64,000 nucleotides of DNA, from contig OZ287083.1 in NCBI GenBank assembly GCA_965645245.1, forward strand, positions 682,001-746,000. Reading direction: 5' to 3'. Source of the DNA: Massalongia carnosa (lineage: Eukaryota). Positions 1 through 60,529 of this stretch are shown piece by piece. The translations under genes and the position numbers were made by a program. The notes below the pieces were generated by a model. It saw only the letters and a list, made by a program, of their open reading frames with translations. It ran no database searches and was not told the DNA's origin. Numbering within the stretch: the stretch's first letter is position 1; every line of letters begins with the position of its first letter.

Positions 1-561
1 TAAGCCTTTTCGGATTAGTATATAATTAGTCAGAAGCTAAGTCAATTTAGTTAAATGTTTAACTGTTTTAGGATAAGATTCTATTTAGCTTACTAGTCAT
101 GCTTCGGGCGGCAGGTCTGAGTTCAAAACTCTGTAATTTTGTCAGGTTCTCGTTATTTTGGTGACAACACACGTAAGTTTAGCGCTTAAGATTTAAAATC
201 ATCGTTTTTCACGTTTAAGACAAGATCAACGACAACGCATGAAAGTTGTAATATTATAATACGTTATTGTCGTCGCTACTTAAAGATATGCTTTATTAAA
301 TGATCTAAAATTTAAACATCCTGTGTGCGTTGCGCAGTTATCTTCATCATCGAGCAACATCGACTCAAATTGACTCTCAAATCTCGACGACAGCACAACA
401 ACTTCGAATTGAGTCTTGCTCTTCAATTCAACGATCGGCGCTCATATTCATCATATTGCCTTGGCGGATCATGTTATCGTAGTTCTTCAGGACTTCAAAC
501 TCAAAAATATAGTCGTTGTCCTTGCTAGCGTGCTTTCTTGTTGTAGCGATATTACATCAAT

Positions 562-858
562 ATGAGTGACGCGATACAGATGTTGACTCGTGAGAAGATC
601 GAGAGCGTTGTTGATCAGTATTTCGGATTTCGTCCAAAGAGGGAGCAGGTGGATGCGCTTCATCATCTGTTGTGTGATAGGATGGAGTTGATCTTGATAG
701 CAAAAACAGGTTTCGGAAAGAGCATACTGTTTCAAGCTGCTTCTTTGATGTTTTCGCGTTGCAAGTCAGTGTTGATAATCATGCCTTTGATTGCACTGGA
801 AGAGGAGCAATGTGAAAAAACCCTCTTTAAACGCCTCGTCGACCTTCACCGGAGTTAA
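562..858 (+). pseudogene. RecQ-like SF2 helicase N-terminal fragment (transposon-associated)
   Basis: FGFRPKREQVDAL (Q-motif), LIAKTGFGKS (Walker A), IIMPLIALEEEQ (motif Ia). Homology breaks off after ~90 aa; upstream flank is AT/TpA-rich. Confidence 0.8.
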
Positions 859-915
859 CGTCTATCGCCTCAAAGGAGCTGCCCGATTCTCGCTCGGGGC
901 GAAAAAGAAGGCGAC

Positions 916-2614
916 TAGCTTACCTGGATGAGTGATGGCGGAGAGCAAAGCCGCGCGGCGCGGATTTGCTCCTCCGGTGAGCGATGAATAGAACGGGTTT
1001 AATCAACAAACATACCGCCTGAGGGTTCCAGCGTACTTGCTGGAAGGGTGGGGCTTTCAGGTGCTTCACTGGTTTCGTTTGTAGGCGCGAGTCCAAGTTC
1101 AACATCCTTTTCATGATCGTCAAGGGGTACCGTTTCACTTATGTAATGTCGATTGTACTTCATCGAGCTCTCACCCAAGCGAGCGAGGCCTTCCATATAA
1201 AGGTTAACTGTCGGATTCATCGAAAATCGATCCCCATTGACCTCAACGAGCGACTTAGAGGCCAGTTGCAAAGCCATACTCCATATGTCCTCGGCGGCGG
1301 ATTTTGAAGAATTAGCCCTTCCGAACGTAAATTCGACCGCGGCTTTAACTTCCAGTAAATAAGGCCCGTTCATTGCCCAGTCTTCCAGTAACTTATCGCT
1401 ATTCTTCGAAAAATAAGATCGTTCTCGCTGAAATGTCTTAAGATTATTGTTTAATAATTCCAAAAGCCGATCGGTTTCAAAATTTGAATCCTCGTTGTCT
1501 CCTAGATTGACTAAACTGTTAGCCAAAATTGCATCTTGCAGCTCCAGGGTCGCAGCCGGTGAATCGGTCATGTGAAGAACCCGTAGCAACGCCTGCGCGT
1601 AATTGGGAGTTCCAGCTGACTCTGCTTGAAACATCATCGTCACCTGACGCAGGGCCCGTCGAAGCAGTCCAATATCCGCATGTTTGATGGCATATCGAAG
1701 AGTCAAATACAGTTCCACATGGGGGCAAAAATTCTGATGATTACGAAATTCTTGATCGAGCGCTGGCGCTGAGAATAAGTGGACTCGTCTCGGTGAACAT
1801 CGCAACAGGCGCGCTGAATGAGATCTAGCCATCGTGGCGCCTTACTCGTGATAACCGCCGCGGCGCCCTTGAAGCTATTTAAGGTGCCCAGCTCGTCGGT
1901 CTCCGAAGGCGGGTGAAAAACCCCAAAGGCGGCCGTAGCAATCAGTGCATTGAGCTCCGCTCGAAGGGCCTGCACGACCCAAGTCCAACCCTGTTCATGA
2001 AGAATGACTGCTGCTCGATCCTTCCCAATAAGCTCACCTAGTCCTTCGTCTTTCATCATTTCAACATAGGCGAAATCCATAAATTGAGCCTGTCCAGCCC
2101 GCATGCGGTGACGCCCTCGATATTTTAGCAATGTAGAGAGAAAATCCTTGATTGTCCATTTCAAGGTTCCGAATATGCTCCATCAACTCAAGAAGTTTAC
2201 CCCAATCATCCAAACGACGTCGTGATCGTCCTCGTCGTTTTCGGCGTTCCTTAGATCGCCTTGAGGACGACGAACGGAGGAAGGAATCAGAATAATCATG
2301 ACCGCTGGAAGTTGATTGAGGGCGCCTTAAAGGAGTTTGGCTTTCTGGCAGTGAAGGGGTTGAAACTCTCGAGGTCAGGGGACTTGTCAACAGGTCAGTG
2401 GGCGAGGAGGCGCTGGCTTCGGGTGAGGCCATGATGAAGTCAATGTTTTTTTTTGCGCAGGGATCGCTCGATGAAGGCAAACTTCTGTGGACAGGTAACC
2501 TTTCCTTTGTTTACATACTGCGTATCTACTCCGTACAACTGCAGGGTATAGCCATGTAAGTTTATGCCGCGCTAGGTCGAATCCGCGCCGCGCGGCTTTA
2601 AGTTCAAGAGACTA
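916..2614. mobile_element. Internally deleted Academ-like DNA transposon unit (TAG...CTA ends, shared subterminal GC palindrome)
   Basis: AAAGCCGCGCGGCGCGGATT at 947-966 and its exact reverse complement at 2580-2599; GACTAGCT at 913-920 and 2610-2617; encloses the DUF6589-like ORFs. Confidence 0.5.
999..2432 (-). pseudogene. DUF6589-like putative transposase, frameshifted and internally deleted
   Basis: ORFs 2061-2480, 1703-2164 and 999-1832 in tandem; C-terminal part has YAIKHADIGLL, NYAQALL, NSLVNL and ETDRLLELLNNNLK, resembling DUF6589 proteins. Confidence 0.65.
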
Positions 2615-2669
2615 GCTCAAAAACAGGCACGCTAACTAAACAGGCTTGACGCAGGCATCGACTGCATAA

Positions 2670-4118
2670 TTATTTACGAAAAAACTATCCTCTCCAAACA
2701 TCAATCTCTCCGCCATTTTCACTCTTCCATACGCGGCCTTGAAACTGCGCAAGCGTTCAACCTATGGTTCTGAATCGCCTCTTGCTAACTTGCGATCTTC
2801 TCCCAGTATTACGTTTGCCTGCGCTTGAACGACAGGGTCCTCCCAGCTTGTCCGACAGACGAGCGCGTGACTGATAGGAGAATCAAGCCAGAGCTGAGTG
2901 GATGGTGGAAACTTATGGATAGGCCCAAATCGATTCGCGAGTCCTGAAGGAGTGACTCTGGGTGCTGTTTGACTAGCATGCGCCCTTGCGAGGTCACTCT
3001 ATTTATCGGACTCGACAATGTCCTGCGTCTCGCCGTCTTCTTGCACGCCGACGTACCAAGGCAGAACCGTCCGACGCGGGCCGTTTCCTTTTTTTGGAGT
3101 CGAACCATAAAGGATTTCTGGCTTCGTGACTCTCACGTCTCCTCTTTTGCAGGGAACAGGAATAAAGTCTCCAAACTGAGCGGCATCCTCTTTGATCCAT
3201 ATTTTTTCAAGGCCATGTACGTGTCCATCCGGGACCTCTCCACGAGCGCACACGTTATTCCACCACTGGGCAATGTGTAAATGAAAACCAGGGACTATTT
3301 TAGTACACCCCTCGGCGGTCTCTTCATTAAGCGACACCGAACCTTGAATGATGTTGCCCCCATGACCATTATCCAGATATTTTGGTACGTTAATATCAAT
3401 ATGGCGAAAAATAGTTGGATCTCCCTCCCGTGTATACTTCGCGTAATACGGATATGATACCAATCGAATATTGCGATCGGGACGGAGGCACGCGTACAGT
3501 GCCCAGTATTCGATGTCTTGACGGATCAACTGTTGGGTTAAAGAGTAATACATAGTTCGTAACCATCCACGATTCGACTGACCATTCCTCTCCCGCTGAT
3601 GCCACTGATAGATGTCGAACTCTTCGAGTATCAGATCTCCGATTCCGGTCTCTACTTCGTCTTTGGATTTTATCCCTTTCCACAACCAATCAAACATGTC
3701 TTTAACAATTAGATTTTCATCTTTCATCCAGAGATCCCAAGCGAACTCTCCTCCAATCTCGTCGACTATGATTTTGGCTTGCTCCTCAATGAGCCCTCTT
3801 ATCAGAGATGATCTCGTTGCTCGTTGCTCGTTTGTAATAGACGCCAAGAGCATCATCATCACCCCTCGGTCTAGCACATAAACGAAACCAGAAGCTTGTC
3901 TCCCGTCCTGTTTTCAGATCATCGAGGTTGGAACGATGATGATGACAAGACTTGAGCCTCTGTCTTAAGTCTTCTGCATTTAAATTATTGACTTGAAGAC
4001 CGAAATGACCGCCTATAGCTAGAAGATGACGATAGCAGACGTGAGTTAACTCCTCTCCGTGGATAACTGCAGACATTATTTTTCTAATAGTGCCTAGATA
4101 CTCTGCGTCACCTTTCAT
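2670..4118 (-). pseudogene. Fe(II)/2-oxoglutarate dioxygenase (PhyH-like fold), frameshift plus premature stop
   Basis: SYPYYAKY...FRHIDIN (HxD), IQGSVSL, CTKIVPGFH, GDVRVTKPEILYGS. The frame continues past the TAG at 2999-3001 (SDLARAHASQTAP...SWEDPVVQAQAN). End coordinates approximate. Confidence 0.65.
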
Positions 4119-5500
4119 TCCTGCCGCTGAGGCAGTCTTTTACAATCCGGCCTTCCTTTGAAGAATTAAGTGTGAAGGATTTAGCTTCAAGATAGACTAC
4201 AAAGCCGAGGTCCAGCTCCCGGCTGGCGATCCAGAAGACCCGACAGATTTTTCAGGTTCTAGCAAACGCGGCAAAGCTGCAAAAACCTCCAAGGACATCA
4301 AGACCCCGAAGGCCGCCAAAATCAAAAGCGCCAAATCCAACCTTGGACCGGTAGAGGCGGCCAATGAATCAGCGAAAAAGGCAGCCAAGGGAAGAAAGAG
4401 GTAGAGACCACATGTCATGTGGCAAATCCGCGCAGCGCGGCTTTGCCGTGGATAGTCTAGCTATAGAGATGTACTAGCTAATTATGAATCAATGAACGAC
4501 TGCAACCGACTTTCTCTTACTATTTTCGTGACCCAAATCGATGTCCATTGTAGACTGGGACCCGGGCTTTTTGTCCAGCTTGCATCGAGTTTAAAAAGCA
4601 TGCTCGCCATCCCTTGATGTCGTTCTTTACTGCACATATTCGACCGCGCGGTTCCAAAACATAAAAATAACACATATAAAAAACGACGGTATGGTATAAC
4701 ATGATTGAGCTGATATTTTTACGCTCAATCGGGGAAGGCCGCTCGATAATTAAGTATTATTTCATTTATCAAGCAAACCTGCCCGTATTATTGAGTTTTG
4801 TCCTCAGACGTGTAAGCACAGCGAACTTAGTAAGCAAAGCCTAACTTGAAAGGGTTAGGCACATATTCTAAATAAGTTAGCGCTGAGCTAACCGAAGGAG
4901 GTTTGTGCAGGTGAAGGCTGTGCCACAACACGTCTGAGGTACTGAGGCAATATATCAGGAGGTTCTCGATCCAGAGTAGTCTCATCCTTAAGTTCGTTCC
5001 AGTTGATGATACAGAGTCCGGTTGCGCAGGGGCGAGGCCTGTGTCAAGAGCGATAGTTATTGCAGTGTGCTGCCCATCCTTGGAAGTAGGCAAGTAGGAT
5101 AGATATCTTCAAGCTTAGCGAGGTGGAGGGTGAAAGAGAATATAGAGCGTTTATGTTCAGCTGGAAGGATATTGTATGCGATAACACTCAATGTTAACAT
5201 CTACCTCGGTACCGGGGTTGACGGGGTACTCTGCACATCGAGTACAGGTCTCTTAGCGCTTCCATGACGTCACGGACCAACTGTTAAAGATGCTTAACTG
5301 ACAAGCGCGTTCCCGCTACTCTCATCATAATCTGGATGTAGAATCCATATATGACGGTGCTCAACTACAGCAATAGATCTCCAGTCTTTTCTGCAATCTC
5401 ATTGTGTCGCCTCTCGTTCAAAGTAGTGAATGCACTCTGATTCGAGCCATTGACGAAGTAAAGAGACTATCTTTGAGCTGAAATTCATTTACACTGGAAC

Positions 5501-8500
5501 ATGGCTGCGAACGAACAACAGCCTCTGCCAGGAGGCCATTATAGTGGTAGGTATTCTCCTTCTCGATTTAGGCTTGTTACATATTTATGGATTCATAAGG
5601 TATAAATAAAATACCTGATATCAAAACCTTTGTGCATAATCTGGATAGGAACAAACGAAATAGAGACCAGAAGCTTGACGAAAGTCGCATGGAAGGCAAG
5701 CAGGCTCAGGATGATGTGCATCCGCATCACGCAAGTGAAGCCGGCAAGGAGGGAACACGCAAGACCGTCCATGATCCCACGACTGGGAAAGAGGTTCAGA
5801 TTGAGGATGTAGATGCGAGCTTCATGAAAGCCGCACTTGACCCACAAGTGCGGTTTTTTTCACTTCACCTTCCTTCCACCAGGTAACTTGCTGAGATGGC
5901 GCTTTAGTTGTCAGTACCCAATGCGAACCTTGGAAAAGACACCGTGAGCCATCCCCCTTCGTCGCATTGACATTCAATTAACTCTGGTAGACTGTCAAAA
6001 CGGACCCTTCGCAGCCTTATCCCGAATATAAGCATAACCAAGATGGTTAGTCTATTGAAGTAGCGATCTATAGAACCTTCTATTGATTTAAAGTAAACAG
6101 TAACGGCACCACCTGACCCGGTGGCCAAAGGAAGTACATCCGATGTGCCTATTCATGGCGAGAAAACAAATATTTTATTCCATCCTACACCATCGGTCAG
6201 CTATGAGCCTATGTTTGCGTCTTTGGAGACGAGAGCTGGAGGCTTTTGTATTGGTGTCTTCTTTGCGACAGTTTTGCTTGGAAAAATGTTTGGAGGTTCG
6301 CTGAAGGGATTGATTCCACTGGCTGCATGTATAGTTTCAGGTATCTGGCTATGGATGAAGGAGGTAGTCCGTAGTGGAAGAGAGGTTGAGTGGTCAAGCG
6401 AACAGTCAAGAGGAGAGACAGTGCGTGAATAGGATCCAATGGGTATCAAGATGGAAATGCTGATAGCTTTTAGGCCGTTGCCAATTTACTCCCAGAATCT
6501 GTGGAATGGATGAATACCTTGTTGGCTATCGTGTGGGGACTGATCAACCCGGAAATGTTTGCCTCTGTCGCTGATACCCTTGAAGACGTTATGGGAGCTT
6601 CCGTCCCAGCAGTCATCGAGAATGTTAGGGTGGCAGAAATCAACCAGGGTAGCAACCCTATCCGTATCCTTAGTCTTCGTGCACTCCCAGACACGCATGT
6701 TAAAGAACTCAAAGAGAGCATTCATGAAGAAAATAAGAAAAATAAGGATCCACAAGAGGCTGCCGCTGATGAAGAAGGGGGAGACTACTATAATCTCGAA
6801 GCCGCGTTTGCTTACCACGCCAAGCCCAGCGGTGCCGATTCTTCCTCGAAAGCGCGAAATATGCACATGCAACTTGTATTTTACCTGGGTATGAAGGGAC
6901 TTTTCGGTGTTCCATTGCCTATATTTGTTGAACTACAGGGTTTGGTTGGCACAGTGAGACTTCGACTTCAAATGTCTCCCGAGCCACCTTTCCTAAAAAC
7001 CCTTACTTTTACCCTGATGGGCCTACCACATGTCCAAGCAGGGTGTGTTCCCATGGTACAGAAAGGTGTCAACATCCTCAATCTACCCTTAATCTCGAAC
7101 TTCGTCAACTATGCCATTGGTGCTGCAGCTAGCATGTATGTAGCTCCTAAATCAATGTCCCTAGACATTGGCAAGATGCTACAGGGTGATGATATCCAGA
7201 AAGACGTGATTGCTCTTGGAGTCTTGTGGATTAGAATCCACAAGGCTGAAGGATTAAGCAAGCAAGACAGGCGTGGAAGTAAACATGGAGGTTCGGATCC
7301 ATACATCACGTTGTCATTTTCAAAATACGGCAAACCTATGTATTGTACACGAGTAATTGCTGATGATCTCAACCCGATCTGGGAAGAAACTGCTGCGTAA
7401 GCAGATAGCATCCGCGCACCATGGAGATTTGCTGATTGTCGGCAGGCTGCTGGTTACTCCCGAGTTGATCAAAGCCGATGAACAGCTCAGCGTAGAGCTG
7501 TGGGACTCAGATCGATCGAGTGCGGATGATATTGTAGGCAAGATTGAACTTTCAATGCAGAAAATGATACAGCATCCTGGGAAAATGTACCCACAGGTAT
7601 CAAAACTTCGGGGAATGGAAGTCGATAGTGAGATGCCTGGAGAGCTTCACTGGGAAGTTGGATATTTCTCAAAACCCAAATTTAGGCCTGCTCTGCGCAC
7701 GGATGGGAAAAATCGAAACCTTCCCAAATCTCTGCAAGACCGAGAAGAATTACAAGACGACAAAGGGACACTAAATACCGAGGACGAGGACGCTGTAGCG
7801 CACACCCCTCCTGACCCTCTTTGGCCAAGTGGTGTTTGTAGTGTTGTTATTCATCAAATTGTTAATCTCGAGCTTGAGAATATTCAAGGCAGTGAAGGCA
7901 ATAGAAAGGGGAGGGAATACGAGCCGGCTAAACCTGCAGGGGAAAACATAGAGGAAGAAAGTAAAAAACTTCCCAGCAGCTACTGCACGATTTTATTCAA
8001 TGACCAGTTGGTAGGAATCTTAGTGGAACTATCATTCTGACTGCTTCTGACAATCCATTAGGTATACCGTACTCGAACCAAAGTCGTTAGCAGCAAGCCT
8101 ATCTTCAACGCTGGAACGGAAAGGTTCATGCGGGATTGGCGGTCTGGTATCGTCACGGTTACTGTTCGTGACCAGCGCCATAGACAGCACGATCCACTTC
8201 TTGGTGTTGTGCCGTTGCGACTGTCAGATATCCTACAAACAAGCTCTCAAGTCACGCGCTGGTATCCATTAGATGGCGGAATCGTAAGTTAGGTTCTATT
8301 CCTCTCTGCAATTTGCTAATTAGTTCAGGGGTTTGGACGTGTGAGAATTTCCCTCCTATTCAGAAGCATCGAGACTCGATTACCACCAAATATGCTTGGT
8401 TGGGATGTTGGGACATTTGAATTTGCTTCCGACAGAATCTTAGCACTGAATTACCATAACAACGCCAGATTGAAGCTACGAACTGGAGGCAGTAGTGGTA

Positions 8501-9601
8501 CGATTGGCAGAACTCAGTGTCAGAAATTGGCAGAAGGCGATGGAGTGTTTTTCGACATTGCTAAGAAAACCGTGAAGAATAATGTACGTTTACCTGTCAA
8601 ATTCCGATATCGATCTCCAGTAGTATTTGAGTTTCATACAGCAGGAAAACGAGGAGCTACGGCGTATTCAGTTATCTGGCTTCATCATCTGGTAGACAAT
8701 GAAGTGACAAATACCAACATTCCCATATGGACCGCTAAAAACGGTGCCCGGTTGACACAAAATTACTTCACCGAAGAAAACGTTCGGGCCGGTGATATTC
8801 CTGGTCTTGAGGACCTTCAGGAAATAGGACGCTTGCACTTTCGGTGTCAATTTAAAGCCGGTATTGACGAAGACCACGAGCAGTATGTTGTCGATAATGA
8901 TTCCCGCGAAACATACGAGACATGGGAAGCCTGTGTAGCGGAAGGCGTTCGGGATCGGAGAGTGACGAAAGAGTTGCCGCCTATGGTCCAAGAACTTCAC
9001 GAGCAATCATTGACCGAAGGCCGGGATATTCTGTCGCAGGCCGATGCTGAAGAAAAAAAGAAGTGGCTAGCAAAGGACGGTCAAGATTGGAGCGGCGCCT
9101 TCACGCACGATCCCAAAGCGTACATGGATTCCTCAGGGCGGAAGCGAGCTGAGCCTGGAGCACAGAAGCCAGTCCGTGATCCTTACAATCCAAGCTCCGA
9201 CGATGGCAATATCAGCGGCTCCGACTACAACGCTAGCAGCGACTCCGATTCCGATGATCTGGAAATTCAGGATGCCACCAACACCACCGCGGCCAAGGAC
9301 ATGGACGGTACTGCTCAAACGAATGGCGGACTGCAAGACGGAGGCAGCAAGGACGAGCAGAAGAGTAGGGATGTTGCCAATAAGAAATCCGAGAAGCGGA
9401 AGCACCGCGGATTGCTGCAGTGGAAACCTGTAAGGGTACGTTCCTCAGGAGAAGTCGTTATGTCATTGTCCGGGGTGTGGCTAACGAATGCAGAATCTGG
9501 CTTTCGCCAAGGACGAGGCCAAGTTCACCATGAAGAAAGTGCAGCATAAACTTACAGGAGGCTTGGGCGGCCGTGAACCCAAGGTGGAAACGGAAACCTA
9601 A
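5501..9601 (+). CDS. Mug190-like SMP/C2-domain membrane tether (tricalbin-related), multi-exon
   Basis: ATG 5501; TM hairpin, PESVEWMN SMP start, C2 motifs GSDPY and LNPIWEE, VELWDSDR; GT-AG introns join the ORFs; TAA 9599-9601. Confidence 0.85.
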
Positions 9602-10529
9602 CACACCTAAGCGCGCTCGGTTTACGAATGGGGTTAGCTGTTTTCCTTGGGATTTGAGATTATTGATATCTAAAGGGGATAAGTAAGAAAAGGGCGAAAG
9701 CTTCCGATTTCGACGGATAAGACAGCGCCAAATTAGTGTCTCTGAAGCCTTAATATTTATTTTTCTCAGTAAAGCTTCCAACCAAAAAATTGAGATTGCC
9801 CTCCACAATCGTAACGTTTTCTCACGCAGTCACGCAAGAAATTGTAACGTACGTAAAACGGATGGACACAACAACGTATTCAACCAAGTCCCAAAATATA
9901 TATATATGCCACGTAAGAATTATTTCCACCCCAGTCCCTCTCGTCCGCGGAGAATGTAAATACGCCTTCACATTACCTCCGACCACATGGCTCTCAGACA
10001 AGAGCAGTCATCATCCCGTGATGATGCCAGGAGGAATATATACATGGGATATAACGAAATGTACCGCATTGCAGCAAAGCTTCATTCGCTACTAGCTCCA
10101 CACACTAGGAGGGGGCCTCGTGGGTCTCATCTCCCCTAAGGTTCACATCGTCATTGATCGTCATCGCATCGTTCCTTCTCGTGCCCCCATGCGTACATTT
10201 TGCACCACGAAAACTTTTCGTCTCTTCGTCCAATCTTAAAAGAACATTTGTCGAGGGTGCTCAAGACCTTCTTGGGTTTGGTAGTATTGAGCAGCACGTC
10301 CGGGCTAGCGGAAGACTTTGCACGCATCGTTGGTGTTCTGGATAGTGTAGGTGAAGGACATAGCTCGTCGGATTCAATATCAAGCGGGGCTAATACCGCA
10401 TGCGATTGAATATAGAACCCAGGTTGAAATCGTTTCCGTCCACGTCTTGGTTTCTTTGATCAGGGTTTAGGTCGCTACGTGTTCGCCATTTTTTCAAGGC
10501 CCAAAATACTGAAGCAGGATTAATGAAGG

Positions 10530-11324
10530 CTAGTTCGGAGATCGCTGGCTGTTGGCATCAAGGTGGCTCGCGCTAGCGAGTTTCGCTTTTTCGAAACTGG
10601 TGGATTCGGTTTCATCAGTGTTTTGGGAATCGATATCGTCAGTCATATGGTGTACTGCCAGGATATCATCGTCCAAAGGGCGCCAAACCCATTCTCTCCG
10701 TCGCTTCCGCCGTCGTTGTACCGGCATCAACGGCGCGTCTTCAGCCGCGTTCTGCCTTCCTCTCGTCCCGCCATTGTCGAGTTTAGCCCTTGATCGTTTT
10801 TCTCCACAATCCGAACTGGAAGCGTCGGATGCGTACTCTACCGATGGTGTCGGGATTATATCTTCCAAGAGCTCGCGAAACATGACTCGCTTAACTGGAA
10901 GGAATAATCGCCGGTTTACCCGGGTGGTCGATGCCGGCAAATGTCTTCGGGGAAGGGGGCTATTGCGAAGAATGCTGCGAGCTCCCATCGGAAGGGAGTA
11001 TGGTGCTGACACGGGAAACGGGGAGGTGAGCACCGAGGATGAAGAGGTAACTGAAGATGAATTTGACAAGGGCGGAGTTGGAAGGTCGCTAGAGAAAGTT
11101 TGCGATGTAGAATCCGGCGTTTGCTGAACGAGCGTGGGAGGAGGTTGAAGAAGAGCGAGCGCAGACGGAGAGGCGACACGGTCAGTTGGCGTGTCCAATG
11201 TGGTATTGGGGACGAGGTTCGTCTTGACCGTGTCACTAAGCGGCGAAGATTCTGCGAAGGTCTGAAGGGACAGCTTCGGACGCTTTGGCATTGGCGGTTT
11301 CGAAGGTGGTATTACAGACATCAT
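10530..11324 (-). CDS. Ser/Pro-rich fungal hypothetical protein
   Basis: Long ORF with KRPKLSLQT, RSILRNSPLP and RRKRRREWVW motifs; start could be 11324 or 11465. Confidence 0.65.
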   Translation of the reverse strand: MMSVIPPSKPPMPKRPKLSLQTFAESSPLSDTVKTNLVPNTTLDTPTDRVASPSALALLQPPPTLVQQTPDSTSQTFSSDLPTPPLSNSSSVTSSSSVLTSPFPVSAPYSLPMGARSILRNSPLPRRHLPASTTRVNRRLFLPVKRVMFRELLEDIIPTPSVEYASDASSSDCGEKRSRAKLDNGGTRGRQNAAEDAPLMPVQRRRKRRREWVWRPLDDDILAVHHMTDDIDSQNTDETESTSFEKAKLASASHLDANSQRSPN

Positions 11325-14816: not shown

Positions 14817-15704
14817 GAATCAATCATCAAGCGTTTCTCGGCTTGACTGCGCCTTTGGTTACCTCCCTTGCGTTCCCCATTCAACCATCAAAAAAGCGAC
14901 TTACCAATACCCTACTGCACGGGCATTCCCAACACTCAGGCTTCAAAGCAAAAGGTCCTCCGCATCCTCATCCTCTACGCTCTTTACCAGTGATCCCCCC
15001 AGAGCGGCCCTCGATAGTAGTCTCGTTGTCTCGGTGTGCGGTCCTCATCACCAGTCCTCCACCGCGCAGCATCGTGGGTTCTGCAGCCGGAACACACCCC
15101 CGGCAGTCGATGGAACTTGCTTCGCTGTCGGCAAGGCTGGCCGTCACGGTGAAGCTGACAGCCTCTGATACCAGCATTGCGGACGCAGCCACACGCGTAT
15201 AGTATCCAGATTCTGATGCACATCTCTTTGATGAGAAGTTGACTTCTTCCTCCCCCCTCCTCAAACCCCCCAAGAGGTGGCTTTTCAGCAGCGGAAAATC
15301 TCGTTCCTGGCGAATGTTTTCTATTCGAGGCAAAGGGTGATAGGGTAGGCAAGCTCTGGATAGGGGAAACAGAATCCCCCCACCCAATCGTTTGAGAAAT
15401 TATAGATAGATGGGTATTATTCAACCTGTGAACGTTTCCGGTTAGTCATAATACCGTGAGTCTTGGTTTGCTGTAAACAAGAGGGGGGGCCCATGAGGTG
15501 GATTGCCGCAAGGTTTGGTGCATCGAAACCCAAACTGCCTGACACAGGGGGTTCCAATCAATCAAACAATCAAATCCACTTTTCCCCCCATCCCGCTTCG
15601 CAACAGTAAACCAAGTATGTATGCACTATAAGACAGACATCAAACAATACACATCACCCACCCGTTGCCTTCAACCCGACCCAAACCCCCCACCCCTCGC
15701 TCAC

Positions 15705-16863
15705 TCAAGAACCCTCCCTCTTCCACCACGCCACAACCCCCAACACAAAAACCACCACCATGGCATCCCTCACCACCACCGCATAAACCCCCCCATACCT
15801 CCTCGCCAGCAGCACCCACCCCCTCCACGGCTCCGGCAAAACCGCCCCGGCCAAAACCCCCACCCACCCTCCCCCTCCCCGGGGGCTCGCGTGACGCCCG
15901 CGCTCCGCCAGAAACCGCGCCGACTGCAGCCCCACCTCGGCCGTCGCGAACGCCCAGAAGAGGAAGTGCCGCACGTTGATTTCTATCCCCCCCCCCTCTC
16001 CCTCCTTGGTGGCGCTGCTCCACAGCGGCCCGGGTGCCGCGCGCGAGAACCATGTCCCGCTGAAGGGGGTGGCGGAGACCATGTACACGCCCAGCGCGAG
16101 CGCGAGCAGCGCGTGCGCAATCGTCCAGAGATGGTCCGTTCCGGGCTCTTCTTCTTGCTGCTGCTGCTGCTGTTGCTGCTGCTCCGAACCCGCGCTTTCC
16201 CCTCCTCCAAACCCCCCAAGCATGGCTGCCAACCCGGGCGGCAATCCGGCCATTATTCCCTGTCCGCCGCTCGGCATCTCGCCCCCACCCCCTCCTCCTC
16301 CTCCCATCAACTGCTGCAACATGGCCATGAGCGGATCGTCGATGACCTGGTGTTGTCCCCTGCCCTGGTCCCCCCGACCCAGAGGCTGCCCCGGGGGCGC
16401 GAACCCGCGGGGGCCCGAGACGCCATCTTGCATATCGGGGCGGTCGTGCGAGGAGCGGGAGTTGGCGTGGTAGGCATGGGTGGAGATGTCGACTTCTTCC
16501 GGGTCGGTTGGGGAAGGATGGTGGTGGGAGGGCGACGCAGGGGCAGATTGAGGGGGGGCGGGTGCTTTTCGGATGAGTGAGGTTAGTTGCGGAGCTGAGC
16601 TTTGGGTTGGGGCGGGCGAATAGATGAGGGCTTGGGGGGGGGATTGTTGCTTGCTACAACGACGAGGAGACGGAGGGGGAGGAAGGGTGTTTTGCACCTG
16701 CTTCGGCGGATCGACCGGATAGGGAGGTGATTTTGTCAAGGCGAGAGGAGCCGCCGGCTTTGATCTTAGCCTCGCGGCGTTCGCGGCGGAGGCGAGCTTG
16801 CGTCTGCGTTGGGGACTCGTCGCGAACAACAACGGGGTTGGCGGGTTCGGTGTTGGTGGCCAT
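15705..16863 (-). CDS. GET2: GET complex subunit Get2
   Basis: QARLRRERREAKIKAGGSSRLDKIT N-terminal motif, DPEEVDIS, DPLMAMLQQL, C-terminal TM segments; one intron; poly-Q tract. Confidence 0.8.
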
Positions 16864-54878: not shown

Positions 54879-56508
54879 CTAATATTTAAACCCCCAAGAA
54901 CCACCTGCCCAATCTTTTCGCGGTGCGATGTCAACAAGAACCCGGCCCCTCGGTGGTGCAATTGCTAAAGACATGTTGCTTGTATCCTGCTGAGGATCAA
55001 CCCATTGGCCTGACGCTGGGTGTATGTCAAATTTCAAAACGAACATAGCGATCATCACTACGATCTCAGTTGTGGCAAAGTGTTTACCAGGACAAAGATT
55101 AACGCCACCCCCAAAACCTCGGAATGCTCCAGATTGTATCTTCTTCGAGTTTGATTTGACAAACTTTTGGCAGTCGAAATCTTTGGCCTTTCCGCCCCAA
55201 ACGGATTCGTCAAAATGTAGTTCATGGTTTGGTAAGATAAGAAAAGAGTCTTTCTTTAATAGATAGCGGTTGTCTAGTAGAACGTCCTCCAAAACCATGC
55301 GAGCTCCTGCACCTGACGTGCGATGGCGGAGCGATTCGTGAAGGATGGAAGTGAGAACAGTTATTTCTCTAATCTTGTTGACATCTAATATTCTAGATAT
55401 CACGCCTCCCTCTTCTTTGATTGTCAGACAGGCGCTAACCTGCTCTCGTACAGTTCTCAGGATTGCAGAATCCGAAAATACATGGTACATTGTCCAAAAG
55501 GTTGTTGGAATTGTGTTGGCGAGGAGTGCAACGCCATTTACACATTCGAAGCGCGCGGTATCATTTGGAACAAAATCCTGGCTCAGAATCTGGTTACGGA
55601 CTTTTGTCAAATGGGAACCTTTTTGTTGACCTTTGGCGGCAAAGTACTTTTCAAAGGCAGCAACAACCTTTTCGCGCCCAACATATCCTTTCGACACAAA
55701 CACATTGGGCGTGATTCCTGTAAGGAGCATGATAGTGTCATCCAGAAAATCCCTACAACGCTCAGTAAGTGCTGGACTTACCCTTACAAACCTTGTGATA
55801 GGCTTACCAAAACCCCTCCTCAACTTCTGGATCTCGATACGGATTCATTGGGCCATAAACACTTTCTGTCGTTGCAATGGTCATTTCATGCTGCACCCAT
55901 TTCCAAAGGTTTATCCGCCTCGCTTCAGGCTTCATCTCGAACTGTTCAAGTGCGGTTGCAATAATCTGGGAGGTGCCCTGAACCATTGCATCAACTTCTT
56001 GTCCCGGCATCATCGCTTGATGCGTCGCCCTTATCCCTTTAACTAACAAGCTGTGGTCAACCTGCTCGCCGTGGAGGTTCTCCACTATTCGCTCACTCGC
56101 TTCCTTACTCATTCCCCCCAGCTTTGCTGTGAATTTGCCTTCAACAAACCAAAATGACACGGTTTTAGGAAGCCGCTGACAGGAAAGCACGAGCTCGGGT
56201 GAGTTTACAACATAAACTCGGCCACGAAGCATGGCTAAGCTGTAAATTTTGAGGGCGTATCTGGCACTAGATGGGAGTTAGCTTTAGCATCCATGGTGAC
56301 CTTTGTCTTACTTGAGCTTAGCATAGTACCGGTTCTTGTGCCAGAATAGACCAATAACATGGCCAAAGTACGGGATCGTAGAGGGGACGAAAGGAGGCTC
56401 TCTAGAATCCCGCTTAACTCTAAGCACTGTGTCGAGGACAAGGAGACCGCATGCTATAGCCACCAGCGTCAGAAGTATACCTGTTGTGTCAAAAGCGGAA
56501 ACTTCCAT
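54879..56508 (-). CDS. Cytochrome P450 (CYP7/prostacyclin-synthase-like fungal clade)
   Basis: N-terminal TM and EPP, ANTIPTTFW, ESLR, FGGGVNLCPG heme motif; two introns. Confidence 0.92.
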
Positions 56509-57130
56509 AACAAGTCTTATGTTCCAGTGCGTCTAAACGTCTCTAATAAACCATACAACAATCAGCAATGACGGTTGAGATTAAGAAAGATCGTAAATAA
56601 ATTACGTCGGGATAGAGTAGGAAATGTAAAATCCCACTTTATTGCACAGACGAAATCAACAAGTAAATAAGGTCAAGTAAGGAGCACAACACGTCCATAT
56701 CTGCCTACAGTAGGTAACAACATTGCTGGATCTTTGGAGTCGTGTGGCTCGGTGCTTGATCCTCGCCAGAGTGTCACCTTGCAGCTCAAATCCTGAGGAG
56801 GTAAAGTTCTGCGCCGCCTCCTGATCCATATATGTAGCCATGCCTCATCTCCATGCACGCAAAGCGATTTGTAACCGACGCTGGCACCCTGTACGACACT
56901 GCCTTAATTTTAATGCTATACCTCTAGTGGTGGCACAGTAGCTGTACGTAGCTGTCGTTGATTGTACTCGCATGATGGGCCGCTGGCATAGATATCTCCT
57001 CGCATATGATAATAGCTTTTTACTTCAGCTATATTTGTAAACTCCCACCTTGAGAACCTTGTTCAATGCTTCATACACTGTCAGAACTAGCCGAAAAATC
57101 ACTCCTCATAGACTTTGCAAATCTCCATCC

Positions 57131-58267
57131 ATGGAGCCATCACCAGCCCGCCCTCTAGGCTCGGTGCTCGTCGTCGGCGGCTGCGGATTTGTCGGCGTCC
57201 ACATTGTCCAACACTTCCTCCGCTCACCCGACTTCACCTCCGTCTCCGTCCTGAGCCGTAACCCCACTCTCAACATTCTCCCCAACGTAAACTACCATGT
57301 CGGGGACATCACCTCCTCTCCCATCCTTCACACCCTCATCGCCCAAATCCGCCCCACCATTATCGTCCACGCCGCCTGCCCCTCCGCCACCACCGCCCCC
57401 GCCTCAACCCTCGAAAAAGTAACCGTAACCGGCACGCGCAACCTCCTCTCCGCCGCGCTCTCCACCCCTTCCGTCCGCGCCTTCATCTACACCTCCTCCA
57501 GCACCATGGCCGCCGGCCACGCGCACATCAACCTCGATGAGACCGCCCCGCTCGCCGATTCCATCGCCTCTAGCCACCCGTACGCCCGCACCAAAGCCCA
57601 AGCCGATACTCTGGTCCTCGCCGCTAACCATCCGGCCTCCTCTTCCCCAACGGAAGGTTCTCTGCACACAGCCTGCATCCGCCTCCCTATCGTCTACGGC
57701 GAGCGAGACCTCTTGGGCACCCCCGGAGTGCTGGGCGCGCTGCAGCGTGGCCAGACGGGCGTGCAGATCGGGGACGGCGGCAATCTGTGGGACTTCTGTA
57801 GCGCGGAGAACGCGGCGGCCGCGCACGTGCTGCTCGCCAAAGCCCTGCTGCTGCGTTATTCATGGACGGGGGCACCGAAGGTGGACGGCGAAGCGTTCCA
57901 CATCAACGACGGGGAGAGGCATCTATTCTGGGATTTCCCACGAGCGGTGTGGACGGCTGCCGGGAAGCCGGTGCGGCGGGAAGAGATGTGGGTGATTCCG
58001 ACGTGGTTGGCACTGCTGATGGCGGGGGTGACGGGGTGGGTGCTTTGGATAGGGACGGCGGGAAGGAAGCGACCGGGGCAGTTCGGGAGGCAGCAGGTTG
58101 ATTATTATTGTTTCGAGCACACGTATGAGATTGGGAAGGCGAGGGAGATGCTAAGGTATAGGCCCGTGACTGGAGGGTGGGAGGAGGGGATCCAAAAGGC
58201 GGTGGAGTGGTCGTTGAAGGAGGGCGGGTGGGGTGAGAAGCTTGGGGGCCATGAGAAGAAGTCGTAA
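57131..58267 (+). CDS. 3-beta-hydroxysteroid dehydrogenase/C4-decarboxylase-like (Erg26 family) extended SDR
   Basis: VLVVGGCGFVG, YTSSS, YARTK, IVYGERD, DGEAFHINDG; intronless. Confidence 0.88.
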   Translation: MEPSPARPLGSVLVVGGCGFVGVHIVQHFLRSPDFTSVSVLSRNPTLNILPNVNYHVGDITSSPILHTLIAQIRPTIIVHAACPSATTAPASTLEKVTVTGTRNLLSAALSTPSVRAFIYTSSSTMAAGHAHINLDETAPLADSIASSHPYARTKAQADTLVLAANHPASSSPTEGSLHTACIRLPIVYGERDLLGTPGVLGALQRGQTGVQIGDGGNLWDFCSAENAAAAHVLLAKALLLRYSWTGAPKVDGEAFHINDGERHLFWDFPRAVWTAAGKPVRREEMWVIPTWLALLMAGVTGWVLWIGTAGRKRPGQFGRQQVDYYCFEHTYEIGKAREMLRYRPVTGGWEEGIQKAVEWSLKEGGWGEKLGGHEKKS

Positions 58268-58419
58268 ATGACAATCAGTAGCATTCGATTTGATACTAAG
58301 CATTTTATACAGGCTCTATGGGTATTCTGACAAGACTTACACTGGGTTGGTATCGAATATGTATGCTTTACTGAAATAATGGCAGAAATCATGCTAATCC
58401 CTCCCTCCTCCATTGCTGA

Positions 58420-60529
58420 CTATCGACTGTCTACCGGGGTTCGGGGTCTTATCCGGAGAGTTAGGCTCGCTTTCGGAATGATAGCCGAGCGCCATTGGAA
58501 GGATCTTGAACCTTTGATAGGATCTAGTTTGCAGTCATAGTTCCGTAGCAGGTGGGCGACAACCAATTTCAGAACCAAGGTTGCATAGAACCTCCCTGGG
58601 CTATCCAAGAAAAACATGTTATTGGCCTGCCGGTGAATGGCGGGATGAGACGGCGGGATTAGGTGCAGTACATACCACAAAATTCGGCCGGCTCCCCACA
58701 CCAGCCAGTCTTCCGAAGCATCGGTCAATTTGGATGGCTTGACGGCATCTGTAGAACTAGTGCTGGTGTTATTGATAAAGCGGAAGGCGTTGAACTCCAA
58801 AGGATTCTCGTAGTACTGGCTGTCACGCATCATGGGGCGGTGAGGAACGCAAATCCAGTCTCCGACTGAAACACGGAATCCATCAGAGAATGAGAAGGGA
58901 GTCAGAGCTTGTCGCCGCACACCAGCTGGAAGGGTATTAGGATACTTAAGTGGCAAGTGAATTTGGAAAGACTTACTGCTCTCGAAAGCGCTCAATCGCG
59001 CGGATTCCCTAATAAAGCTATCTAGAAGTGGTAGGCCATCAGCAGTCTTCTTGAAGTCGTCGTAGAGAGATCCCTGAACTTCGTTCCGAAGAGGCTCAAT
59101 GTACTCCTCATGGGAGTATAGATCTACCAAGGTGTATGTGGTCGCCTGAGATCCCCATGTCAGCCTATCTAATTTCTCTTGCACAGGTTTACATACAATC
59201 GCTAGGGTGTGAACCGAGCCATACCAAATCCCCATGATCTCGCCCACAAGTCGATCTGCGCTCCAGTTCTCCCTCCTCGGTGATGTGTCTACCAACCACT
59301 GGATGCCATCGCTCTATGTTGTATGAGCAGTATAATATGCGCGGAAGAAAAATGACTATACCGGCTTTTCTACATACGGTCCTAGATTTATGGTGTCCCT
59401 GGCTTCAAGACGCTGCTCGACTACCGGAAGGAGAAAACTGTACATGATTGTCGTAGACCGATATCTTCGAGTCGCTATACTTGCAAGAGACCTAAAACAC
59501 TTATATCAGACAAGCAGAACGATAGTGAAAGAAAGACGTACGGAGCGATAACACCTGGCATAATGCGAAGGATTTCTGCGGCAAGAAAAACATCCTCAGG
59601 AAATGCGAGGGCAGCATCGACAAATTTTTGAATTCGTGCTACCAGAGTCAGCGAAGGAAATACCGAGCGTCCCGTGAGTCTTACACAATTCAGATCCAAA
59701 GAAGACAAGAGAATTGGTTCTTGTCACCAGTCTTTTGGCTAGAGCAAAAAGCGGAATTCGACAGTGGGCTTGTCAAATTTTAGAGTACTCAGAGATGTTC
59801 TTGCTAGACGATATGTATTTTGACTTACATTTAGTGGCTTTATGCCTATCAAGTTCCATTTCAAAATGATCCGCAATGGTTGAGTTTAGATTTGGAAGCA
59901 CGACAGGTAGGTGGGCTGTAAGAAGACATCGCAGTGCACGAACAAATCCCGTGCCTTCAACACCTCTTCGATCTTTCCATTCAAATCCATGCATTGTATG
60001 CTTTGGCTGTAGAAACTGAGGGTCATACTTGTCAGTTTAAACTGTGAAATGCGATTTTTCCACCCACATCCTTTGCAACTGCGTGCAGGGATAGTTGATT
60101 CAATGGAGCTCTGTTTAACTCTTGAATATGCGTTCGAGACGTGATCATGACATTCTGCTTGCCTAGAGTTTGGATAATGAATGGTTTTCCTTTGGCCTGA
60201 GAATCGTGTTAAAAGCTTATATGCAAGATCTGGGTTATAATAATTGCCTTGATGTATGCCCTGTCTATTACAGACGCACCGGCAAATAGGTATAATATCC
60301 CAAAGATTTTGTTCTGAATGATCTCGAATGCTCTCCATGCATATAATGGCTTTTCATATGAAGACTCGCCATTCTATAATGCTCGTTAGCGCGAACAGTA
60401 TGGAAAGCATTAGTTAATAGAGAATACTATGTACTGGCTTCTCAATTTCAGGAGTACATAGCCCAAATAAATAATCATAACAGCAAGTGAACTAGGCAGA
60501 TGATTGTTTTCCAACAGAGCTCCGAGCAT
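58420..60529 (-). CDS. Cytochrome P450 (ent-kaurene-oxidase/terpenoid-type), many introns
   Basis: N-terminal TM exon from ATG 60529; LDSFIRESAR, FNAFRF, WGAGRIL|CPGRFYA. Confidence 0.88.

Follow-up and report, generated by a model that had tools for sequence, protein, structure and literature searches.

Genes for Fe(II)/2-oxoglutarate (2OG) dioxygenases of the TET/JBP class were reportedly described on fungal transposons by Iyer et al. in 2014, and on these carriers the enzymes presumably evade methylation-based silencing. A RecQ-related helicase is said to be borne by another group of transposons, AcademH, which Kojima reportedly described in Mobile DNA in 2020 as having a low to moderate copy number, terminal inverted repeats and target duplications of 9-10 bp. 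According to a recent survey, TET/JBP genes occur on fungal KDZ, hAT, Harbinger, IS3EU, EnSpm, ESTA, Plavaka and Helitron elements (Kojima 2025, PMC12730594). Here we describe a locus of Massalongia carnosa, lying at the start of a window of 64,000 nucleotides (contig OZ287083.1 of assembly GCA_965645245.1, positions 682,001 to 746,000 of the forward strand), where the remnants of a gene for a different dioxygenase, of the PhyH/YbiU type, stand beside the remnants of a DUF6589 gene and a stump of a RecQ-family helicase gene. All unprefixed coordinates below are those of the window.

Like the TET/JBP genes of that survey, those of the family described here encode Fe(II)/2OG dioxygenases, ride as accessory genes on fungal element lineages that are not related to one another, Helitrons among them, and appear to shift between carriers. 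The family differs in the PhyH/YbiU class of the enzyme, in the much larger protein with its own N-terminal domain and a CxC motif, and in its carriers, among them a long terminal repeat (LTR) retrotransposon and units with RecQ helicases. In a word search, PMC12730594 yielded no PhyH, phytanoyl, lichen, Lecanoromycetes or hairpin, and in our literature searches we met no account of PhyH-type dioxygenases on mobile elements of fungi.

We consider it probable that positions 1-4950 of the window are a mosaic of dead repeat fragments in this probably lichen-forming ascomycete, in which the core at 822-4950 arose by deletion from a multi-copy DNA element with the dioxygenase as a passenger and the RecQ stump comes from another repeat. 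A preliminary description of this DNA had recognised a RecQ fragment on the plus strand and, on the minus strand, a DUF6589-like open reading frame (ORF) and an HxD dioxygenase, all of which were recovered here in reduced form: a Pfam scan of seven window ORFs gave three matches, one to each. The features of the region are as follows.

1..540, no strand: AT-rich repeat-derived DNA (GC 36%) with small hairpins of TTAG/CTAA type, running past the window start
562..858, plus: 5' stump of a RecQ-family helicase gene, with start codon and motif I region (Pfam DEAD and PDB matches)
820..822, no strand: breakpoint between the RecQ repeat and the DUF6589-dioxygenase repeat (contig ends)
945..969, no strand: GC-rich palindrome, copy 1, ~35 bp 3' of the DUF6589 stop (DNA hairpin of -17.9 kcal/mol, z -4.8)
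999..1766, minus: C-terminal ~250 residues of DUF6589 (PF20231, E 4.4e-24; 58% identity to residues 217-456 of relative P0060)
1767, no strand: junction of the internal DUF6589 deletion, the central core being gone (tblastn limits 1757-1805; loose ends at 1766/1768)
1768..2510, minus: N-terminal region of DUF6589 in two frames (ORFs 1703-2182 and 2061-2510; E 4e-32 to L001:11511-12860; no Pfam match)
2580..2617, no strand: palindrome copy 2 (degenerate), 12-nt spacer and CTAG, ~50 bp 3' of the dioxygenase coding end (z 0.07)
2648..4139, minus: pseudogene of a PhyH/YbiU-type Fe(II)/2OG dioxygenase, middle and C-terminal parts (Pfam PhyH; comparison with paralogues)
4140..4421, minus: degenerate remnant of the linker/CxC region (read by eye against relative P0040)
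4422..4462, no strand: palindrome copy 3, 12-nt spacer and CTAG (hairpin of -12.1 kcal/mol, z -3.0)
4463..4950, minus: conserved end of the element, containing small hairpins and a closing 22-mer, TTGCCTCAGTACCTCAGACGTG, at 4929-4950 on the minus strand (unique DNA beyond)

Evidence for repetition was drawn from the contigs of four public runs, one of them labelled lichen metagenome, placed on window positions 1-8000, with 5074-8000 as the reference for single-copy depth. To the left of ~4950 the contigs are short, falling into pieces of 150-1600 nt over 822-4950; long contigs of single depth start at 4921-4966, and one of 22.6 kb starts at 4921. Depth summed over contigs, which is not a copy number, is ~3.5-10 times the reference at 822-4950 and ~10-35 times at 1-540 in runs X1, X3 and X4. 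Past 4950 the contigs continue into differing loose ends, placing the boundary between repeat and unique DNA at ~4950, beyond the limit of 4462 drawn in the preliminary description, and several deletion joints are seen in the contigs. Depth, shattering, loose ends and deletion joints together show that the region is repeated DNA. Moreover, since contigs of multi-copy depth span DUF6589, palindrome copy 2 and the dioxygenase (X1 2414-3393, X3 2540-4140 and X5 2402-2940), these two genes form one repeat unit. In all four runs, joints also lead from ~97-114 to ~4809-4829, skipping ~4.7 kb, with single-copy-like depth; beside them lies an inverted similarity of 37 nt between 112-148 and 4775-4812, which none of 300 shuffles reached. 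These may mark a short derivative of the element or a product of recombination.

Comparison with other genomes rests on relatives of the dioxygenase, for which 414 coding matches were found in metagenome contigs of the Joint Genome Institute (JGI) and the best 80 (L001 onwards) were analysed as loci. The closing 22-mer recurs unchanged at L001 5708-5729 and with 3 mismatches at L002 6825-6846, the flanks being different at every site, and an inverted copy with up to 5 mismatches was found neither in the window nor in the 80 loci. In its intact form at L001 the element reads from the end 22-mer through small hairpins, a gene here called ORF-X and the dioxygenase to DUF6589, and the contig ends 240 bp past the last of these. 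L001 is the locus where DUF6589 stands beside the dioxygenase, in the order and orientation seen in the window. We suggest that the core at 822-4950 (minus strand) derives from an element of this kind by internal deletion, and ORF-X is missing from the window. ORF-X itself (360-516 amino acids, no Pfam match) lies upstream of the dioxygenase, in divergent orientation, in three lichen-clade loci, at L001:6335-7882, L002:7313-8479 and L003:3423-4502, each time on the minus strand.

The RecQ stump appears to belong elsewhere. Positions 547-858 (+) match Pfam DEAD with 28.2 bits (cut-off 26; E 1.9e-6), and the 14 PDB matches of 562-858 all fall within the RecQ family (13 WRN chains and one of RECQ4; best E 6.6e-5), so that this part of the preliminary description holds for a remainder of ~90-115 residues. 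The homology stops at ~819 and is followed by foreign sequence and a stop codon; beyond 819 other copies read on differently, as loose ends, in all four runs. Listed contigs end at 757/819 or start at 822, and in none of the four runs does one bridge 819/822. Because of this lack of a bridge, and because the copies diverge after 819, the stump is taken to be part of a separate repeat, a more abundant one, with a summed depth in bin 535-801 of ~20 times (X1) and ~46 times (X4) the single-copy level. Three relatives of the stump were found among 66 database candidates, and the 80 loci gave just weak motif-I matches. We picture the stump as having come from another repeat that abuts the element.

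This separation bears directly on the proposal that RecQ, DUF6589 as an Academ-type transposase, and the dioxygenase make up one AcademH-like transposon, which we now regard as quite unlikely. The three do lie within 4 kb, and a RecQ helicase neighbours the dioxygenase in 13 of the 80 loci, at no more than 1.3 kb in 12 of them. There is also, as reported for AcademH, a RecQ-related helicase tied to fungal mobile DNA at low to moderate copy number. However, contigs of every run break at 819/822 and the depths on the two sides differ several-fold; none of the 13 RecQ loci contains DUF6589, and hhalign found DUF6589 and the N-terminal region of the RecQ proteins to be unrelated (probability 0.09%). 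The stump in the window is short at its N-terminus, unlike the helicases linked to the dioxygenase elsewhere, which it resembles weakly (best E 2e-5 over 55 residues), and no terminal inverted repeats were found. Thus, in contrast to AcademH, the helicase and DUF6589 here appear to sit in separate repeats, and the helicases linked to the dioxygenase elsewhere bear an OrsD zinc finger and a conserved N-terminal region of ~600 residues. DUF6589 is found in fungi and animals, a distribution also given for AcademH in part of PMC10799480, the supplements of which hold no DUF6589, PF20231 or Academ.

The DUF6589 gene of the window is itself a remnant. ORF 999-1841 (-) matches PF20231, covering profile positions 259-408 of 410 alone, and tblastn with eight full or half-length relatives gave 1026-1805 as the sole matching stretch. 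ORF 1703-2182 (-) aligns with residues 133-254 of the L001 protein, within its N-terminal half (E 4e-32). As nothing but the C-terminal end and the N-terminal half is matched, the central part has been deleted at ~1767, and the loose ends at 1766/1768 show that other copies run on through the junction. Full-length proteins have ~860-1050 residues (~950 in L001), and the family comprised 316 representatives at E<=1e-3. Four paralogues with 82-100% identity occur in Sclerophora amabilis, and the Atlas clusters, all of DUF6589 itself, come from Basidiomycota, Mucoromycota, Cnidaria and Mollusca. Copy number, paralogues and spread fit a protein of mobile elements, and DUF6589 is likely, as we infer, to be the mobility protein of the L001-type lineage. 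A search of its profile against PDB sequences gave nothing significant (best E 0.073), and Pfam at E<=5 returned DUF6589 alone. Conserved acidic residues of the full-length relative P0116 (D421, D595, D661 and E665) are candidates for an active site. In the literature searched, the family was met in passing, within a list, and PF20231/IPR046496 gave nothing relevant.

The dioxygenase had been recognised from ORF 2999-3913 (-), which exceeds the Pfam PhyH gathering cut-off narrowly (23.4 against 22 bits; E 8.3e-5), and the identification stands for what is now a pseudogene. Its true span, 4139-2648 (-), is wider, with a frameshift at ~3807-3826, a TAG at 2999-3001 in place of the Trp codon of P0001 (a paralogue with 96% identity), and a second stop codon in the C-terminal part. 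The distal catalytic His (H323) has become Tyr (codon 3107-3109), and this copy can therefore not be active. There is no trace of the N-terminal domain of ~390 residues present in intact relatives, the N-terminal parts of the L001 and L002 proteins having no tblastn match in the window. Identity is 96% to P0001 and 91% to P0040, two close paralogues on two other megabase contigs, and 61-64% to P0002 and L001. The copy is dead and without functional consequence, both genes of the element being inactivated.

In the preliminary description the DUF6589 and dioxygenase genes were thought to be delimited by a shared terminal motif. The motif is real: the GC-rich palindrome AAAGCCGCGCnGCGCGGnTTT occupies three sites (945-969, 2580-2599 and 4422-4446), and its pattern matches six times over both strands where 0.02 are expected, a number reached by none of 100 shuffles. 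Copies 1 and 3 form strong DNA hairpins and copy 2 has decayed. It is not a terminus. In L001 the palindrome stands 3' of the dioxygenase and of DUF6589, with a third copy 3' of the upstream ORF-X, and in L002 again 3' of the dioxygenase, while a diverged copy of the unit can be read in L003. As the repeat extends to 4950 and the palindrome borders genes in the related loci, the palindrome is a gene-boundary feature and not a terminal repeat.

Helitrons end at the 3' side in a hairpin ~10-12 nt before CTRR, begin with TC at the 5' side and insert between A and T. Copies 2 and 3, read on the plus strand, consist of palindrome, 12-nt spacer and CTAG, and the palindromes might accordingly be 3' termination hairpins of a composite that acquired the dioxygenase and DUF6589 through read-through, its movement being due to a RepHel protein (Helitron_like_N + PIF1) like that of L002 and L003. 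In these two loci the palindrome lies within a 50-bp unit, present as 2-3 repeats, directly 3' of the RepHel gene, and this unit closes a RepHel block that is 95.7% identical between them, the dioxygenase block being 84% identical; Helitron units also bear the dioxygenase in L041, L042 and L047. Yet the base after CTAG is C, not T, no 5' TC end could be defined, and the repeat ends at 4950 in ...GGCAA and not in CTRR. Tblastn of three RepHel ORFs found none in the window, and long palindromes, treated below, precede the gene on its 5' side in Gypsy-linked, RecQ-linked and unlinked loci too. We consider a Helitron-type composite unlikely, and retain the reading of the core as a derivative of the L001-type element.

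The wider significance of the locus lies in the diversity of carriers on which relatives of the dioxygenase are found. RepHel occurs in five loci (L002, L003, L041, L042 and L047) and belongs to two families that are 27% identical. L041 and L042 are collinear at 78-81% over RepHel, palindrome, dioxygenase and ~800 bp further, and L041 contains two tandem units of Helitron plus dioxygenase with a period of ~9.7 kb (1-785 against 9706-10490, 91% alike). Inspection by eye did not reveal the Helitron ends of L041 and L042. A Ty3/Gypsy pol gene lies directly upstream on the same strand in L006, L010, L024, L050, L068 and L071, and the Gypsy locus L036 looks circularly permuted. The locus L010 is a complete Gypsy element, with LTRs at 127-404 and 10470-10748 (279 bp, 99.6% alike, TG..CA ends), a polypurine tract GGGGGAGG and a CTAC target duplication on both sides, and its dioxygenase ORF (7456-10419) is placed after pol and before the 3' LTR. 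The arrangement in L006 is identical, and the LTR parts there are 100% identical. Five neighbour families (RecQ, RepHel, Gypsy, ORF-X and Tet_JBP) were sought in the 45 loci that have 2 kb or more of flanking sequence to one side: RecQ was found in 10, RepHel in 5 and Gypsy in 9, and 24 loci carried at least one of the five. Of the 80 loci, 68 entered a quick tree (the other 12, with an aligned core of <300 residues, were left out); RecQ linkage is scattered over it, Helitron linkage occupies two clades that are distant from each other, and Gypsy linkage likewise occupies two clades. Since it is present in these other kinds of elements, the dioxygenase is a passenger; DUF6589 would move the L001-type elements and the dioxygenase would ride along.

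The suggestion that the enzyme is a recurring cargo of mobile DNA is thus supported by the Gypsy element L010, the Helitron units, the DUF6589 element L001, and the multi-copy and RIP-like (repeat-induced point mutation) copies described below, and the parallel drawn with TET on KDZ elements extends more broadly than proposed. Nor are the homologues single-copy syntenic metabolic genes; transposable-element linkage is found in multi-copy homologues. That an ordinary metabolic dioxygenase of the host merely happens to lie in repeat-rich DNA is hardly credible, since the gene sits between the LTRs in L010, which contradicts it, and in L006, and within collinear Helitron units, and since there are many copies, some dead and RIP-like. 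What would suit such a gene are the small-molecule enzymes among its fold relatives and the loci with ordinary neighbours alone.

A word-indexed protein search recovered 55 relatives, and those hosts that are named belong to the Pezizomycotina and are in many cases lichen-forming. Three copies were found in Pseudocyphellaria aurata and two in Endocarpon pusillum; many of the relatives are fragmentary or on short contigs. In L045, a Tet_JBP ORF (3-851 (+), PF12851, E 1.5e-9) lies ~1 kb upstream of the dioxygenase (1859-4771 (+)), and L046 is nearly identical; these loci may represent two dioxygenase classes on one carrier.

Frequent linkage to RecQ, suspected at the outset, was also found, in the 13 loci mentioned above, and the most frequent partner of the dioxygenase and its upstream palindrome would be OrsD-RecQ helicases of a subtelomeric type. 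Their best PDB match is RecQ5 (E 1.7e-33), and OrsD zinc-finger domains were detected in L020, L038, L077 and L078. The OrsD-RecQ helicases share a well-conserved region of ~600 residues before the core (L053:2213-4108, L077:137-2716, L020:14212-16926 (-) and others), for which there was no PDB match and for which Pfam gave OrsD alone, in three of six members. Part of its consensus resembles a tyrosine-recombinase box, a likeness that nothing supports. Long ORFs with internal repeats (65-76% alike; no Pfam match) occur near RecQ-dioxygenase pairs at L020:3644-7471 and L012:9541-12131.

Similar RecQ-like repeats are the telomere-linked helicases (TLH) of Magnaporthe and S. pombe. Multi-copy subtelomeric genes of OrsD/DUF3505+DEAD+Helicase_C architecture are presented in part of a preprint on Fusarium oxysporum (bioRxiv 10.1101/2023.02.05.527183), and the helicases linked to the dioxygenase resemble them in architecture and in size (1317-1454 residues there). 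A word search of the preprint turned up no 'dioxygenase', and our window is not telomeric; in our literature search a telomere-linked helicase paired with a dioxygenase was not found. This raises the alternative that the dioxygenase is one half of a subtelomeric OrsD-RecQ plus dioxygenase repeat that spreads by recombination of chromosome ends, the copies on transposons being secondary. Telomere repeats end two of the 80 loci, at L019:2-115 (~7 kb from the gene) and L027:6212-6241 (~4 kb), and the scatter of RecQ linkage over the quick tree forces at least seven changes among 12 rows. Against these points, RecQ is absent from 35 of the 45 flanked loci, the window lacks telomere repeats and borders on ordinary housekeeping genes, and the linkage with DUF6589 is left unexplained; this origin is in our view doubtful. 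In L019, a RecQ fragment lies between the telomere repeats and the dioxygenase.

A feature common to several of these contexts is a long palindrome (stem of at least 13, with at most 1 mismatch). There are 38 in the 676 kb of loci scanned, and 22 of them lie 2000-500 bp upstream of the anchor point, that is, just 5' of the full-length gene, with a peak density of 0.48 per kb against ~0.0-0.15 elsewhere. They fall into several sequence families, one of which was aligned in seven Helitron-linked, RecQ-linked and unlinked loci. In this family 10 of 18 stem pairs have changed on both sides and 94% of cells are paired, a result that none of 500 shuffles reached; the outer GTCAG/CTGAC is invariant, and the palindromes of L053 and L051 share 92% identity, their genes 78.5%. 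The covariation shows that the structure is maintained and is silent on its role, because arm-to-arm repair can also generate it in DNA palindromes. Because they occur in Gypsy, RecQ and unlinked contexts, the long palindromes are associated with the gene, not with RepHel.

The gene itself is conserved. Within the metagenome loci it is a single long ORF of ~750-1240 residues (~850-1000 for the intact gene, 860-880 in the L001-type element). Its product comprises a poorly conserved N-terminal domain, basic clusters (27 of 32 N-terminal regions have them), frequently an acidic run, a CxC motif that is invariant, a helical part, the catalytic domain and a helical, conserved C-terminal tail. In 26 sequences H225 and D227 do not vary, and H323, R334 and R335 are present in at least 90%. 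In 62 of the 80 loci the HxD..H triad is intact and the core match free of stops. Six loci (L024, L048, L050, L067, L071 and L073) carry 9-15 stops, with His-to-Tyr changes in all six and Asp-to-Asn in four, and their sequences display a RIP-like pattern, as would be expected of RIP acting on repeats. The ratio of nonsynonymous to synonymous substitution (dN/dS) is 0.08-0.35 in the 10 of 12 computed pairs with unsaturated dS, and the unit of long palindrome and dioxygenase gene is kept under purifying selection at the level of the family.

Regarding the enzyme class, the PhyH profile scores 23.7 bits with L001 and 21.7 with L002, just below the cut-off of 22. Tet_JBP (PF12851) was not detected at E<=0.1 in the window ORF or at E<=0.01 in the full-length ORFs of L001, L002 and L005. 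An AlphaFold (AF2) model of the intact relative P0002 (mean predicted local distance difference test, pLDDT, 87.6; predicted template modelling score, pTM, 0.82) best matches YbiU (Z 19.5, root-mean-square deviation 3.5, 281 aligned; Foldseek E 4e-7), followed by GIG2 (Z 17.9), PHYH (14.9) and PHYHD1 (14.2). NgTET1 (5cg8) ranks 48th with Z 8.1, far under the rows of the PhyH clan and at a level that fits the shared general beta-helix. The predicted fold appears PhyH/YbiU-like rather than that of TET or AlkB. With the clan (YbiU 4rgk, DUF1479/GIG2 6akz, PHYH 2a1x, PHYHD1, EctD and GriE) it shares the double-stranded beta-helix, HxD...H, the 2OG-binding Arg and PF05721; it is set apart by an identity of 12-16%, by extra N- and C-terminal domains and by its carriage on mobile elements. 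For the N-terminal domain there was no usable Atlas match and no PDB sequence match (best E 0.21). The earlier suggestion of TET/AlkB-like action on nucleic acid gains no support from the modelled fold, with which a macromolecular substrate would be compatible. We envisage a nuclear accessory enzyme that would aid persistence of its carrier by oxidising a chromatin-associated target, as has been proposed for TET/JBP.

Taken together, these observations suggest that the unit of palindrome and dioxygenase has been taken up by a Gypsy lineage, two distant Helitron families and DUF6589 elements. A bolder view, which we advance tentatively and expect is more likely wrong than right, is that palindrome and ~880-residue dioxygenase constitute a self-contained cassette which has moved repeatedly among at least four unrelated kinds of selfish DNA in Pezizomycotina (Gypsy retrotransposons, two Helitron families, DUF6589 elements and subtelomeric RecQ units), disarming host silencing, with the covarying palindrome as its recognition or capture site.

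Several points weigh against our interpretation of the core and of its passenger. DUF6589 adjoins the dioxygenase in just 1 of the 80 loci, and L002 and L003, two of the four lichen-clade places, carry RepHel where DUF6589 would sit. None of the five neighbour families is found in 21 of the 45 flanked loci, and some neighbours are ordinary genes (kinase, NLR-like and Snf7). Neither the fold nor a catalytic motif of a transposase, and neither terminal inverted repeats nor a target duplication, is shown for DUF6589 or the element. The repeated DNA extends past window base 1, leaving the left end of the element outside the window, and the depths are, as noted, sums over contigs. Moreover, the RIP indices of 561-4462 are not RIP-like and there is no RIP-type dinucleotide bias. 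Finally, the characterised structural relatives of the enzyme all act on small molecules or amino-acid side chains, and the anti-silencing role is something that we purely infer.

Ordinary fungal genes fill the remainder of the window, so that the repeat region abuts housekeeping genes. At 15543-16862 there is a GC-rich stretch (57-63%) with long overlapping ORFs on both strands, one of which matches GET2. At 54879-59313, partly within a stretch of 61% GC, two cytochrome P450 fragments accompany a 3-beta-HSD/epimerase gene, and together they may form a small metabolic cluster. Window 1-5600/6000 was scanned for Rfam families and tRNAs, with no match.

The findings indicate that a different and much larger dioxygenase family hitch-hikes in the manner of TET/JBP, on carriers that are more diverse and in hosts, lichen-forming and other Pezizomycotina, that are absent from the TET story. 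DUF6589 also gains a context, as a multi-copy gene between conserved element ends, which is what would be expected of a transposase. If its target were chromatin, DNA or a silencing factor, the enzyme would represent a new route for selfish DNA against genome defence, and an unstudied YbiU/DUF1479-like branch would gain a testable biological role. If, moreover, palindrome and gene do travel as a cassette, this would be a second, independent invention of the TET-on-transposon strategy, with a different class of dioxygenase.

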